A stretch of DNA of 64,000 nucleotides from an uncultured Pseudomonadales bacterium (GCA_964513845.1 CAZENT010000002.1:11916-75915); one strand, 5' to 3'; shown: positions 26,401 through 32,400, numbered from the stretch's first letter. Program-made: the numbers.

Positions 26401-29400
26401 CTTCCTGAGTATCCTGTTCAAAACCGTTCCGGTCAAGGGCTCAAGGTGTGTGAAACTACCGACAAAACTGGCAAGCTCGCAGGTGCTCTCTTGGTCGATC
26501 AGACTTCGGAAGTTCTTCTCATCACCACCTCCCAAGGCCAAGCCATTAAGCTTCCCATCAAGAACATTCCACGTTTAGGTCGCGCCACCCAAGGAGTCAT
26601 TCTTATGCGATTTGCTAAGAGTGAAGACTCTGTTGCCGCCGTCACCACAGTCTCCGACTCGGAAGAAGACTAATCGCCACAGCTTGACTTTGCAGAATTA
26701 TATCCTATAATTCATAGTAACTTAATCGCACTTTGTGATTGAATAAATTTCTTTGTTCCAAGGAGGAATAGTGACAGCTAAGAAGGATTTAGACGCCTAT
26801 ATCGGAGCAAACATTGTCGTTATCCCCATAGGAAAAAGGGGGACAGTTTCAGAGAATGCTGATTATCTCGATATGCAAATCAGCAAGTTCAGATATGATA
26901 ATCCCGACATTATTCTAGTCGGACCGCCGCAAATCATCATCACTCCATCCTCTGCAGGCAGGGGAGTAACCATCGACTCCATTGTCTTCCGCCGAGGACA
27001 AGAATCTAACTTAATATAAAATTGTTAGCAAAATCAAGACTCGTATTTATACGAGTCTTTTTGTTATAGTAAGAGAATGAGCACAACATACAAAATTAGG
27101 CCCATGACTTCTCAAGATCTAGATGATGTTATCCAGACGGGGCTTACCACCAAACAATTACAGGTTGATGATTCAAATGCTATGTATTACAGCAAAGACG
27201 CACTGGAAAGAGCCATCACAAGTTCTTCAGAAGTCTGTCTTGTGGTTGAAGTTGAAGATAAGTTCGCCGGATTTTTTATCGCCAACATAAATGAAATTTT
27301 TGAGGAAGCATATATCAGTGACATCAGTATCAAACCCGAGTATCGAGGGTTGGGGGTTGGCAAGGCTCTTTTCCAAAAAGCTCGTGAAATATTATCTAAA
27401 AGACACATCGATTGGTCATGGGCATTAGTTCAAGAGGAAAACGAAAACATGCATCATTTCATGGAAAAACAAGGCTATATTAAAGGCAAAAAATTCTTCT
27501 TCTTTTATAAACCAAAAGGGTTTTAATATTATTAAATAACATTAAGCATGACCGATCTTGACCCCATATTTGTCAACATTCCCTGTCCTACCAAAAAGGA
27601 AGCAATCAAATTGTGTGGTGAGATGCTCAAACAAGATCTTTGCGGCACTGCCAAAGTTCAAGAAAACGTGCACCTCATGTGGGTCGAAGACGGCCTTCAA
27701 GAAAGAGATATCGTTCTCATGAGTCTAAAAACCACCAAGCAATTTCTTCCCAAGATCAACGAGTACATTCTCAAAAATCACAGCTGGGTTACCCCTTGCA
27801 TCGAAGTCGTCGCTATTCATAGCGACATGTGCTAACTACTTCAAATATTTATCGTGTATCTGCTTCAACTGCGGATTAGTCACATGGGTGTAAATCTGAG
27901 TTGTCGCCACATTTTTGTGTCCCAACATTTCCTGAACACTACGCAAATCAGCCCCTTGCTGAAGAAGTGTCGTGGCGAACGAATTGTGAGAAACAAATCC
28001 ATCAGTCATCAAATTATGATTGTTTAACACAGTAAAGTCATAAACCATTCCGTCATATGAAGTATTAGAAATTTTCTTAACTTTCATCCACTTTATCGAG
28101 TTATTATTTGCCAGCAATTTCAATATCTTTAATTTATCGTGATTTTCATATCCAGCATCAATGAGTGAATCTACAATTTTAGGCAGTGTTATATGGGTCG
28201 TCATCATCGTTTTTACATATCTCCCAATATGTTTTATTCCATGTCTTTCTGCGAATTTATTCCAGCTAATATTTTTTTCAATAAGTTCTTTTTGAATAGA
28301 GAACAATATTTTTGTGGTTGGAATTTTACCTCCATCAAATTCTTTTCGAATTTTTATAAGTTTTCTGGTTGGTACTAAATCAACAAAACGTAACTGATCA
28401 GGTCGATGCATAATATTCAAATCATATATTTTACTTTTCACAATTTTATTACTAACAGGAAGCTTGACTAGTCTATTCCTTTCGCACAGGTGAGCATCAA
28501 TTCCAATTGTTAAAAGTAGCAATTGATAGTCCTTGATTAACTCAAGACTACTAGAAAAAAACCTTGGTTCTCCTGTATTACCTTCTGCATCGTATAATCC
28601 AGCAAGAAAAGCCTGCCTCTCCCTCATTGACAATCCAAAAAGAATTGATGGAACACTTTTTAAAGGAGCTTTTTTCGCCCATCCAAATTCCCAAATAGTT
28701 TTTGCTAAAGATGAAGAATATATCGTTAAAATATATGAATTTGAGTTCTTATTTTTCTCAATCTTTGGTTTAATTTTCCATAACTTCTCACACAAATTTC
28801 CATAATACTCTAAATTATTAATATCTTTATCGTTAATTAACAAACACCTTCTTCGAAGAGACACCGTTCCGTCTCCAAGTAAATATCCATAAAATCTCCA
28901 AAAATCAGGCTTATATTTCTTTTCACCTTCAATCTTCCAATTTTTTGATCCAAGAATCCAACTTCCTTTTTTAAGGTCACCTGCAAAAATTTCCTCAATT
29001 CCGTTGTCTCCAAGAGTAAATAAACGATGTTGAGGTGTACATTTCAATAAATAACCTCCAGCCCACACTTCAAGTAACTCCAAAGCTCTGTGAGACTCAG
29101 AGCGAATTATCTTATCTTCCTCATTTTTTAAATTACTAAAATCAACTGACCGAATATTACATTCCTTAGTTTGATAGAGCAGAGAAGCATTGATTACCTT
29201 ACTTCCGGTGTAAATTTTTGTATCGGGGTGTAGACAATGTCTCAAAATGTGTGGGCTAACCTTAATTGGCAGTCCTGCAGCTCGCCGATACTTTTCTACA
29301 ATTCTCTGAATCCCGCGGATAGACAATCGAGCTCTTTCTCCCCCCATGGCCGGATCCCACTCTCCACTTTTCGGAATTCGAATCCATAAGGCTCGATACG

Positions 29401-32400
29401 GATCAGTTCTCGTGTTTAGATATTTCGCCAACCACTCACAAGACCTAGTAGTCAAAAACACCACTCTCGCTCGTCTTCCTTTTCCGATTATGCCAAATTC
29501 ACGAGCCTTAAGATCAATTTTGTCGATATCTAGCTTTGCCAACTCAGACACACGTAAGCCAGTAGAAAAAAGAATTTCCAGTATTGCTCTGTCTCTCAAA
29601 CCAGCCATGGTTGAGGTGTCGGGAGACGTCAACAATCTTTCAACCTGGTCTCTATCCAAAAACTTAATACGATGACCTTCACTTTTTGGCAGTTCTACTT
29701 TTTCAGGAGATAAAGACTTTACCCCTTTCCTTGCGCAGTATTTTAAGAATGCACGCAGGGCAATCACATAATAGCTTTGAGTGGTAGGGGAGAGTAGTTT
29801 GCCATGAACATCCTCAAAACGGCTCAAATACAATCGATATCTTCTTACCATTTCATAGGTCAACTTTTCGATATATTCTTGTTCATAATGTTTTTCAAAC
29901 CAAACACGGAACGTTTTAAGATAGTGGGAGTAGTTACGAATAGTAAACTTGCTGTAATTTTTTTCCACCTCAATGTAGCTCAAGTATCGTTTTATATGAA
30001 CCCTCAAACCCAAATCTAGCGCTTGTTTTTTTGCCATCTATATCAATATATCAAATATTGTGCGACATAAAACTCACCCTAATATTATTCACATTTGCAT
30101 TAGGAATTGCACTAGGCCTGACACTGGGTTACTTTATCTAAAAAAAACAAAACATAATCCCCGCTAGTTAGCGGGGATTATTAATAATTATTTTTCAATA
30201 ATAACCTAAATTTTTCACACCATGAAAATAGGGGAGGTAGAAATAGGGGAGACCAAAAAAGAATTTGGTAAATAGATAGATATAAGTTATCCACAATCAT
30301 TTATTAATAATTATTTGCGTCAATAAAAAATACAAATTGAAAATAAAAAAATAAATTAAATATTTATTATATAAATTCTTACCTGGTCGAAAAATAATAG
30401 AAATAAGAATTAAAAAATAAATAAGTTCAACTTCACTCATTTAAAGCGTCGTCAATCTAAAAATGCGCACAACTCAAGCACCTCTTTAATCTATTAAAGA
30501 AATCTCAAAGGCATATCAAAACTCTCCAAAAAGCCGCCCCGTACAATGCCCCTAAAACGGCTTCTGGAACTTTTTGTGAGTACTTACTCATTAGCATTTA
30601 GCCTCAACTTTTCGGGTTTATCTATGGATAAGCACAGATTGAGGCTACCAGGCACAAACCTCAAAAGAATCAACCAATAAGCACCAAAGGGGAGCCAAAA
30701 CCGAAAAGTCTTCGGGATTATATACGAAATCAGATGATGGGTGAACATATTCCATTTGGAGCCCAACTTTCTGGGTTACGTCGCAAAAGTATTATTGTGC
30801 GACGTATCATAAATCATTCCTCTCCAGGAGAACTACCAGGATAAACAGGGAAGTGCAGAAGAATAACATCCTTCTGTATCCCAATACTATCTCTTAAGAT
30901 GGATAACGACAAATAATAATTAATTGTTAATTAATGATTATCTTTCGCCCTACCTCTGCCAAGGCCTGTCGTGTTTTCTTCATTCTTTGCCAACTGTATC
31001 AAACCCACTCACCTAGCAAGTTATCCACATCACTGCTAATATTTCGTGAAAACTTCCCTATTTCGTGAAAACTATTATAGGATGTGTGTTATAGGATAAT
31101 TATTATAGGATACGTACTATAGGACTTCTCCCCCTTTTCTCTAGCTACCAAGAAAAATTTTTTACTCGTTTTGATAACAATTCTTTTACGCCTACCCCAC
31201 CCACGAAGTCGTCAAAAATCCCACCACAATAATAATCAATATTGTCACCCCATACTCCACAAGGCTCTCCAGGTATACCCTATTCGAAAGTCTTTGTTCC
31301 AAGATGCCAAACAATGCATACAAACCCGAGGTCAATATGAGGCCACCCATAAATGGTTTTACAGGCCAAAAACAAAGTACTCCAGACACAATGGCTATTA
31401 CCCAGCTGGCAGAAATTGCATATCTCCAAACCTGAGGCCCAAAGTTATTCTTCAGATCCACACTCCAAAAACTTGGATATCCGAGCACAAAAGACACGGC
31501 AAACGAGATTGGCATTACCCACCAAAAAGCCAGCTTCAAACTCAGGGCGACTGTAAAGAAAAACAAGGAAGTAACTAGGGTCAATATAAAGTTTACCGAA
31601 CGAGCGGCCCTAAAAAGTTGAATCGTTCGAATCGAAGCAACAGAAAATATATTTTCAATTAACAATATTCCATACAAACCCAAACCAACCAAAATAAAAT
31701 ACACAATCTTAAAAATTCCGGCCAGCAACTGAGATGTTTCTACAGATAATGTTTTTCCAAACATTCCTGGAAACGCAGTCGGTAAAAAATTGGAAAACAA
31801 ACCACTGCCCAAGGTAAACATCATTGGCAAAACAATTAAGGTGATCCACTCAACACCCTTTAAATCGTCAAACAACACCCAAACTGACAAGACGTAAGAC
31901 ACCGCCGCAACTGCCATTACCAAGCCAAATCTATAATCAACCTGAACCAAGCTAGTCAACCACAGAAAAAACGCGATTAATGAACTAACCAAAATAAACT
32001 TTGTTCGTTTTGACATAATTACTCTAAATTCGACCAAACATCGACCACATCATCCAAGTCAGACAAGGCTTCCAGCAACTCCACAACCTTTTTTCCGGAC
32101 TCCTCATTCAAACCGATCATCGGAATGGGAGAAATCGACTTCATATACGACACAGATCCAGGGCCACCTAGTTTAGCTTCGTGTTTGTTCAATACCGAGT
32201 TCAGTTCTGCAGCAGTTCGATTACGATTGTCTGTCACAGCCGTAACCAAAATACCCACACCTTCACGACTATACGCTTCATACACGACTTCCTCTGATGT
32301 ATTTGCCCCGCCGACTCCCAAGCCCTTTTCGATAGCCCGATTAATATTCTCCATCGGCATATTTACCGACCGAGCTTCATCAACACAAGCTCTCAAAAAT

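Follow-up and report, generated by a model that had tools for sequence, protein, structure and literature searches.

A LAGLIDADG intein family at the HxxR active-site motif of Xer-type tyrosine recombinases

In the main text of the survey by Novikova et al. (2015, PMC4760082), the hosts of inteins, among them RecA/RadA, DnaB, GyrA/B and ribonucleotide reductase (RNR), are mostly ATPases with the intein placed at nucleotide-binding motifs. Here, we describe an intein in a Xer-type tyrosine recombinase encoded in a stretch of 64,000 nucleotides (the window; GCA_964513845.1, CAZENT010000002.1:11916-75915) that is filed under an uncultured Pseudomonadales bacterium. Like the surveyed inteins, it lies in a conserved catalytic motif of an enzyme of DNA metabolism, is sporadically distributed and carries a homing endonuclease; unlike the hosts treated in that main text, Xer is an ATP-independent tyrosine recombinase, and the intein site is its HxxR catalytic helix. 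Neither Xer nor integrase clusters of orthologous groups (COGs) appear in the main text of the survey. The explanation that accounts best for the locus as a whole, and that we hold to be very likely, is that the xer gene is interrupted by a class 1 intein with two LAGLIDADG motifs that splices itself out of the protein, homes and has spread among bacteria of the candidate phyla radiation (CPR) and DPANN archaea. As parts of this explanation, the window gene would be the chromosomal recombinase of a Candidatus Collierbacteria-like CPR bacterium, and the element would belong to an old and widespread family that has been repeatedly lost and regained.

The searchable full-text literature, which included the 2015 survey of intein hosts, two surveys of phage inteins, a review of Xer and a review of archaeal tyrosine recombinases, yielded no account of inteins in Xer or in any other tyrosine recombinase; an unremarked entry in the supplementary tables of the 2015 survey is possible. 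The initial annotation of the locus, made from the sequence alone, had stated that no Xer intein was described, which holds for the searchable literature but not for the databases, where the sequences are public and several relatives have been automatically labelled by JGI as "site-specific recombinase XerD/intein/homing endonuclease". Recombinases and inteins co-occur in this literature only as engineered split-intein recombinases. Split phiC31 integrase (PMC6868429) and split Cre (PMC3973285) likewise depend on splicing for their activity, but these are synthetic constructs with DnaE-type split inteins at designed positions, whereas the window intein is natural, contiguous, endonuclease bearing and located in the active site. 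It would be a natural precedent for splicing-gated recombinases, which have so far been engineered tools only. With this family, tyrosine site-specific recombinases, at their catalytic HxxR helix, join the natural hosts of inteins, and the rule by which inteins sit in the best-conserved catalytic motifs of enzymes acting in DNA metabolism is extended beyond ATPases.

The closest solved inteins are PI-PfuI (in RNR, 1dq3), TliVMA and PhoVMA (7qss and 7qst), PI-TkoII (in PolB, 2cw7) and PI-SceI (in yeast VMA1), which have the same Hint fold with an endonuclease nested at the canonical position and likewise have Cys1, a TxxH block, a terminal His-Asn and a pair of LAGLIDADG motifs with Asp/Glu (Foldseek E values of 3e-22 to 5e-12 over approximately 470 to 600 columns). 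The Xer intein differs from them in its host, a tyrosine site-specific recombinase, and is only 10 to 20% identical to them in sequence. On the side of the host, XerA/dif, XerH/difH and XerS/difSL have the R-K-H-R-H-Y catalytic set and the two domains that are also found in the spliced window product, and the literature searched reports no intein in any member of these characterised systems. The window Xer differs from them in scoring below the XerC, XerD and XerA cut-offs and in having a dif-like site that is off any GC-skew switch. In the xerS/difSL and xerH/difH modules, the dif site lies close to the gene (PMC5357621), and the near-palindromic 11-6-11 site near the window xer resembles this arrangement, although here it is predicted only.

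Anatomy of the intein and its host recombinase

The initial annotation had read the gene as a Xer-type recombinase of 733 residues with a class 1 intein of 418 residues exactly between HILRH and SFAT, and the coordinates and all of the residues that it named were recovered. Direct inspection of the protein places HILRH at residues 263 to 267 and IYTHV at residues 715 to 719, with SFAT beginning right after the insert. The R-K-H-R-H-Y set corresponds to R162, K186, H263, R266, H707 and Y716, which are invariant in the alignment of occupied alleles and were checked directly in the window. Two of them, the last catalytic histidine (H707) and the tyrosine nucleophile (Y716), belong to the C-extein, where S686 is invariant as well. 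The insert opens with Cys268 (Cys1), contains TPQH at residues 334 to 337 and both LAGLIDADG motifs and ends in His684-Asn685, followed by Ser686 at +1 (Table 1).

On the precursor, the Pfam family PF00589 (Phage_integrase) is matched in two pieces, together with PF14890, PF14528 and the N-terminal SAM-like domains. The N-extein shows the layout of a SAM-like and a catalytic domain (PF02899 at residues 15 to 105 and PF00589 at residues 125 to 268), and removal of the insert in silico gives a single PF00589 match over profile positions 1 to 169 of 172 (E = 6e-43). The spliced product of 315 residues reaches 248.7 bits with the NCBIfam model of XerC (equivalog cut-off of 335), 237.5 bits with that of XerD (330) and 213.1 bits with that of XerA (220); it is therefore Xer-like, as proposed, while falling in no curated subfamily.

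The isolated insert matches PF14890 (Intein_splicing; E = 2e-19, 70.1 bits against a cut-off of 35.8) and, in two stretches, PF14528 (LAGLIDADG_3; E = 7e-13). It also exceeds the curated cut-offs of TIGR01445 and TIGR01443, the models of the N- and C-terminal intein regions, the latter with 18.8 to 21.2 bits against 15.6. Weaker NCBIfam matches are to the intein portions of the DnaB, RNR, IF-2, GyrA and V-ATPase models, and the sequence matches in the PDB are all inteins (TFIIB, VMA and RadA).

An AlphaFold2 model of the precursor, built on 94 homologues, has a mean predicted local distance difference test (pLDDT) score of 86 and is mostly above 90 across the intein, with the beta strands of residues 274 to 364 at pLDDT >90. 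Foldseek pairs this model with TliVMA (7qss, 2.8e-22), PI-PfuI (1dq3, 1.4e-19), PI-TkoII (2cw7, 1.2e-15) and also PI-SceI, and the exteins with XerA (5hxy and 4a8e) and XerD (1a0p). The endonuclease is modelled with an alpha-beta-beta-alpha-beta-beta-alpha fold that matches I-DmoI (target-normalised TM-score of 0.6 to 0.68) and the endonuclease domains of PI-PfuI and TliVMA. By Pfam, NCBIfam, PDB sequence matches and AlphaFold/Foldseek, the insert is an endonuclease-bearing class 1 intein, and the Hint and LAGLIDADG domains suspected from the sequence are both clearly present. It interrupts the helix bearing H263-x-x-R266: in the model of an empty orthologue, one helix (residues 275 to 288) crosses the junction, and in the precursor model, the counterpart of this junction helix, residues 260 to 265, drops below pLDDT 50.

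Table 1. Features of the xer locus in the 64,000-nucleotide window (nt, nucleotides; aa, amino acid residues)
Feature	Position (nt)	Strand	Basis or remark
Precursor gene, Xer-type tyrosine recombinase with intein	27836..30037	-	Single uninterrupted open reading frame (ORF), 733 aa and stop
N-extein, aa 1-267 (SAM-like core-binding domain and first catalytic part; R162, K186, H263, R266)	29237..30037	-	PF02899, PF00589
C-extein, aa 686-733 and stop (Ser+1, LGH707, IY716TH)	27836..27982	-	PF00589 positions ~136-169, matched only after splicing in silico
Intein, class 1, aa 268-685 (418 aa, 1254 nt)	27983..29236	-	Boundaries from empty alleles L001 and L087 (HILRH/SFATT contiguous)
N-terminal splicing (Hint) region, aa 268-375; block A Cys268, block B T334-x-x-H337	28913..29236	-	TIGR01445 at aa 268-341
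LAGLIDADG homing-endonuclease domain and extra helical region, ~aa 376-640	28118..28912	-	PF14528 in two stretches; Foldseek
LAGLIDADG motif 1, aa 383-392, catalytic Asp389	28862..28891	-	D389 in 120/121 sequences
LAGLIDADG motif 2, aa 478-487, catalytic Glu485	28577..28606	-	E in 114/121, D in 7/121
C-terminal splicing region, aa 641-685; block F (VYDFTV, D667), block G (…SHN)	27983..28117	-	TIGR01443 at aa 665-686
Candidate dif-like site, ACGTCGCACAA-TAATAC-TTTTGCGACGT, 11-6-11	30778..30805	-	Arms 10/11 inverted repeat; 740 bp upstream of xer ATG
Isolated dif-like arm core, GTCGCACAA	30058..30066	-	21-29 nt upstream of xer start codon

Distribution, conservation and proposed movement of the intein family

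A search with the spliced extein gave, as its 120 best matches, only intein-less proteins of approximately 315 residues that are up to 93 to 94% identical to it. The intein-bearing relatives P0001 to P0003 are not among the matches listed for this search, and intein-bearing close relatives were therefore counted from a search with the whole protein. Two empty alleles, L001 and L087, are syntenic with the window gene (gyrB-gyrA, acetyltransferase, cutA, DUF5656 and yebC) and have HILRH and SFATT unbroken, with continuous DNA in L001; the L087 junction reads …CCACATATTCTAAGACAC immediately followed by AGCTTCGCCACGACACTG… and, over a longer stretch, ATTAAAGTTAGCCCACATATTCTAAGACAC immediately followed by AGCTTCGCCACGACACTGCTTCAGCAAGGA. 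The empty L001 and the occupied L002 share the window neighbourhood of gyrB, gyrA, acetyltransferase, xer, DUF5656 and yebC, and the arrangement gyrB-gyrA … xer … DUF5656-yebC, which is a chromosomal and non-prophage context, is common to the window, L001, L002 and L084 to L087. These orthologues show that the insert is not a conserved domain of a non-intein kind, the outcome that by the annotation would have refuted an intein. The gyrA cluster of the window bears the name Candidatus Collierbacteria, and there is no second xer within the 64-kb window.

In a neighbour-joining (NJ) tree of the exteins, 4 alleles of the window's clade have the intein and 118 do not, and its 90%-identity cluster consists of 3 occupied and 10 empty alleles, the empty exteins being 91.7 to 94.0% identical. 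Such a sporadic scatter of occupied and empty alleles is typical of a mobile element. As separate observations on these genes, a gene for an IS200/IS605-type Y1 transposase, absent from the window, lies directly downstream of the occupied xer in L002 (L002:10245-10916), and the intein-less archaeal XerA-type recombinase P0449 (407 residues) has an HNH endonuclease domain fused to its C-terminus.

The whole-protein search returned 262 clusters at E <= 1e-5, and the best 120 of these, which were examined, all contain proteins of approximately 720 to 770 residues with integrase, intein and LAGLIDADG domains; the named sources among them are Woese-, Gottesman-, Roizman-, Wolfe- and Saccharibacteria or "Patescibacteria group". 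In the alignment of these 120 relatives with the window protein (n = 121), the insertion point is identical throughout, and Cys1, the block B His337, His684-Asn685 and Ser+1 are invariant (121/121). Position 334 of block B is Ser or Thr in all sequences, D667 of block F is invariant, and the catalytic acids are conserved, with a single departure from D389 and always Glu or Asp at position 485. An exhaustive scan of 1.84 billion representatives, made without a profile and with the intein as the only query, found 28 clusters (50%-identity level) at E <= 1e-30, and all of those checked have tyrosine recombinases as hosts with the intein after HxLRH. Past these clusters, the scores fall sharply, the next matches being inteins in RadA, eRF1 and a radical-SAM protein, and the Xer inteins thus form a family of their own, apart from the solved archaeal inteins. 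No mini-intein without an endonuclease was seen among the matches listed for the whole-protein and intein-only searches.

In GTDB, scanned with one genome per species, 89 loci were found, and all of the 73 that could be analysed have the junction HxxRH/C…HN/(S/C)(F/Y)AT at the identical site. The annotation's reading of the downstream end as His-Asn with Ser at +1 is thus borne out for the family, with the qualification that +1 is Cys (HN/CFATDLLS) in the CPR loci L007 to L009, L017, L026, L061, L068 and L074, a natural swap of the nucleophile. The occupied architecture is also present in the closed 1.1-Mb chromosome CP066689, and the exact precursor protein of the window is already in NCBI and in Logan, there on a 140-kb contig.

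Some members of the family deserve mention in their own right. The intein-bearing xer frame of L038 (L038:3001-4240) stops just before the C-terminus of the intein (…CKP*), which reflects either decay of the allele or an error of sequencing. P0452 (a "Thermoprotei archaeon", 711 residues), P0259 to P0262, P0265 and P0284 have the same intein family after HxLRH in divergent integrase-family proteins that the Xer extein matches barely or never, and this suggests that the intein family has switched hosts within the tyrosine recombinase superfamily. Two archaeal XerA-type proteins, P0444 (626 residues) and P0446 (621 residues), have a different insert of approximately 350 residues at the same codon (HTLRH/CV…TGN/SFATHLLE), with Cys1, a terminal Asn, Ser+1, LAGLIDADG-like motifs and a sub-threshold Pfam intein match; BLASTP found no significant similarity between this insert and the window intein (E = 0.21), and it probably represents a second family of inteins that occupies this site. 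Several contigs with typical CPR intein-Xer genes (archaeal XerA type in L012) are filed as Gammaproteobacteria, Nevskiaceae, Pseudomonadales, Chloroflexi or Spirochaetia (L004, L005, L006, L012, L028, L034, L048, L049, L058 and P0125), and these are probably mis-binned or mislabelled contigs of metagenome-assembled genomes.

The family also reaches into the archaea. Ten loci have the C-extein signature ATHLLE, most of them labelled Woese-, Nano-, Pace- or Iainarchaeota, and approximately 16 clusters of the ATHLLE type exist. All five of the ATHLLE spliced exteins that were scanned pass the XerA equivalog cut-off (237 to 275 bits against 220). In L083, the intein-bearing XerA gene adjoins the L7Ae and S28e ribosomal genes and an S13-S4-S11-RpoD cluster, a neighbourhood that identifies a genuine archaeal chromosome. 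The neighbours of L013, L015 and L027 were considered as a sign of archaeal origin and found not to be diagnostic, and the question was settled by the XerA scores and the ribosomal context of L083. In both domains, the conserved positions of the empty site are those set by the HxLRH/SFAT codons.

Archaeal and bacterial exteins are 0.31 identical, compared to approximately 0.50 within each domain, but the identity between archaeal and bacterial inteins is 0.40, the same value as among the bacterial (CPR) inteins. The window intein is 47% identical to the Woesearchaeota intein of L003, compared to at most 44% for CPR inteins outside its own clade, and the archaeal bipartition is recovered in 100/100 NJ bootstraps with the exteins and in 3/100 with the inteins. 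These comparisons suggest that the intein has moved between CPR bacteria and DPANN archaea, both of which are ultra-small episymbionts sharing habitats. The shared allele would give a compact marker for the exchange of DNA between CPR and DPANN. The wider proposal, to which we give roughly even chances, is that one intein family homes at the near-universal HxLRH/S(F/Y)AT-coding site and has moved between CPR and DPANN, that this site is a hot spot for inteins and that the retention of the endonuclease could mean co-option for the control of dimer resolution. The archaeal contig L083 (JGI 3300035179) also contains, at L083:20160-22055, an FtsZ/tubulin gene with an Intein_splicing domain and a faint LAGLIDADG match, i.e., an FtsZ intein.

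Recombination at the locus and proposed splicing and homing

L084, L085 and L086, three assemblies made independently from the same population, differ from the window at 1 of the 1254 intein positions, and their differences in the N-extein are confined to two patches, nt 607 to 727 in L084 and L085 (22 differences) and nt 675 to 759 in L086 (16 differences). The junction is at N-extein nt 801, so that the patches lie 42 to 195 nt upstream of it. At 21/24 informative sites in L084 and L085 and at 16/18 in L086, the patches agree with the empty allele L087, with shared runs of only 2 to 13 identical nt at the borders, and they are best read as short tracts of gene conversion between occupied and empty alleles beside the presumed homing site. 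An assembly chimera was rejected as their source because such border runs are too short for a switch between strains in a k-mer graph. P0463 and P0464 have inteins 100% identical to that of the window and exteins that differ, and the idea of a recent intein sweep was raised from these and rejected since the exteins are identical outside the two patches.

Compared with L087, the window is approximately 0.93 identical from 35.1 kb to 30.55 kb. Identity then stands at approximately 0.75 across the proximal intergenic stretch and throughout the N-extein, as far as the base that precedes the junction, and rises to 0.90 over the C-extein's first 60 nt and to 0.95 to 1.0 farther on. A diverged block of approximately 1.4 kb, within flanks of approximately 93 to 96% identity, thus ends at the intein, within 60 nt of the insertion site, as is expected for import with asymmetric co-conversion; we regard this as suggestive, not decisive. 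Over the larger segment 23500-35200, the window is a mosaic relative to L087, with blocks of 95 to 100% identity alternating with blocks of approximately 75 to 85% (0.83 in gyrA), which indicates frequent homologous recombination among related CPR populations.

In composition, the insert has a GC content of 0.32, compared to 0.41 and 0.44 for the exteins and 0.415 for the window, and 60/66 loci have an intein that is richer in AT than the host gene, with a third-position GC content (GC3) that is lower by 0.107 on average. Between the window gene and that of L002, the nearest occupied relative, the proportion of nonsynonymous differences (pN) is 0.149 in the endonuclease, 0.155 in the N-extein and 0.027 in the C-extein. 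Synonymous sites are saturated in this pair (pS of approximately 0.8), and pN alone was therefore compared; that it is the same in the endonuclease as in the N-extein indicates purifying selection on the endonuclease. Over all occupied pairs, the identities of intein and extein are correlated (r = 0.75), with the intein evolving somewhat faster, and the element has hence for long been inherited mostly along with the host gene.

We propose that the intein, made in frame as part of the polypeptide chain, lies midway in the His263-x-x-Arg266 helix and that the precursor would be inactive, with R162, K186, H263 and R266 held 418 residues away from H707 and Y716. Splicing would then start with an N-S acyl shift at Cys268, followed by trans-esterification to Ser686, cyclisation of Asn685 assisted by His684 and an O-N shift, so that HILRH would be joined to SFATT to give an active recombinase of 315 residues and a free endonuclease. 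The endonuclease would cut intein-less xer at the DNA coding for HxLRH/SFAT, and repair from the occupied allele would copy the intein in. That the recombinase would be active only after splicing is the likely consequence of the split catalytic residues and the broken helix of the model, and homing into empty alleles is what the sporadic distribution, the conserved endonuclease and the recombination footprints point to. Such an enzyme would add to the LAGLIDADG endonucleases a new one whose target, approximately 20 to 40 bp in a conserved gene, can be predicted.

The anatomy, the family membership, the conservation, the empty orthologues, the distribution and the recombination footprints are direct observations, and several points weigh against carrying the explanation further. 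Splicing, cleavage by the endonuclease and its target, the inactivity of the precursor and the direction and mechanism of transfer are steps that we infer from these observations. The difference in C-extein confidence between the models is small (pLDDT of 41 to 53 in the precursor and 58 to 69 in the empty orthologue) and was given little weight: a disordered C-extein was set aside as proof of an inactive precursor because the empty-orthologue control is only moderately better, and only the argument of the broken helix was kept. The genome is generally mosaic, and by rough estimates, a breakpoint would fall at the site by chance with a probability of approximately 7% and two patches would fall in the last quarter of the N-extein with one of approximately 6%. 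The intein identities of approximately 0.37 to 0.40 may represent a saturation plateau, and the trees are distance (NJ) trees, which weakens the argument for movement between domains. The dN/dS comparison was dropped, as the only suitable pair is saturated at synonymous sites. Finally, the history of the element is mostly vertical, and active homing may be rare.

The alternative that survives best is that of a domesticated or regulatory intein, where conditional splicing in response to redox state, DNA or stress gates Xer, or where the endonuclease has a role for the host and homing is marginal. Conditional splicing is documented for RadA, DnaB and RecA inteins, and the long co-residence seen in the correlated divergence of intein and extein, the purifying selection on the endonuclease, which is as strong as that on the host domain, and the lack of degenerate or mini forms among the matches listed, in more than 120 clusters, would all fit such a role. 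However, 118 of the 122 alleles in the clade are empty and the nearest relatives thrive without the intein, no specific sensor feature was identified in it, and the conserved Asp/Glu, the sporadic spread, the AT-richness and the footprints are what an active selfish element predicts, which makes the regulatory alternative improbable in our view.

It is less likely still that the intein is a relic that no longer splices, which would make the gene effectively a pseudogene, with Xer lost or supplied from elsewhere in the genome. The window shows 64 kb of the genome, which leaves room for a second xer outside it, and the premature stop in L038 at the C-terminal end of the intein would be an example of such decay. 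Against this, the frame of the window gene is intact over 2.2 kb, the splice-critical residues are invariant in 121 sequences at approximately 40 to 50% identity, and the exteins are strongly constrained, the C-extein above all. An artefact of assembly or annotation, i.e., a chimeric contig in which a free-standing LAGLIDADG gene was joined to xer, might be suspected from the metagenomic source and the strain mosaics visible at the locus, but for practical purposes it is refuted by its recurrence: the junctions are in frame and fall at the same codon in over 120 clusters and in 80 genome loci, which come from numerous independent projects and assemblers and include the closed chromosome, and three assemblies reproduce the window intein nearly base for base.

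The candidate dif-like site and the region upstream of xer

The candidate dif-like site upstream of xer reads in full ACGTCGCACAATAATACTTTTGCGACGT. This sequence of 28 nt is unique in the window, where 0 occurrences are expected by chance, and its arms bear some resemblance to canonical dif arms. It is perfectly kept in L001 (L001:4850), L084 (L084:15), L086 (L086:2061) and L087 (L087:4353) and near-perfectly in L002 (L002:6831), L004 (L004:1583), L006 (L006:1216), L048 (L048:1004), L075 (L075:807) and L081 (L081:2001), always upstream of xer. At these loci, at least 10 from several Microgenomates-type lineages, it lies 200 to 1400 bp from the gene, with the arms kept and the central hexamer varying. 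The site is a candidate component of the host Xer system, not of the intein, and since no GC-skew switch occurs at it in the window, we treat it as a candidate only. If it is real, this Xer would be a single-recombinase module by analogy with XerS/difSL or XerH/difH (PMC5357621). Nothing was found in the searched literature on how CPR bacteria resolve chromosome dimers, and the linked site is a testable candidate for this function. The shorter GTCGCACAA copy next to the start codon is one of two occurrences in the window, a number reached in 6/100 shuffles, and is partly kept in L087; its interpretation as a Xer half-site is speculative.

The two sites lie in a conserved ORF-free region of 1.15 kb (30038-31191) that is 78% identical to L001 over 972 nt. 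It contains 2 of the 3 perfect DnaA-box 9-mers of the window (at 30287 and 31021), a tract of 120 bp with 12.5% GC (approximately 30300-30420) and a bidirectional terminator-like hairpin (30146-30243), and is possibly origin-like or regulatory. The DnaA boxes, the AT-rich tract and the nearby gyrBA would suit an oriC, but the GC skew shows no change of sign across the window. A noncoding RNA in this region was rejected, as Rfam gave only terminator-like noise at both the gathering and the E-value thresholds. The GC skew is negative in every 3-kb window over the 64 kb, regardless of gene orientation, and recalls a disparity in strand composition that has reportedly been described for a Microgenomates genome. 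At 31075-31125, upstream of DUF5656, TATAGGA (CCTATAA on the opposite strand) is repeated four times in direct orientation, and the copies are kept in L001, L002, L086 and L087.

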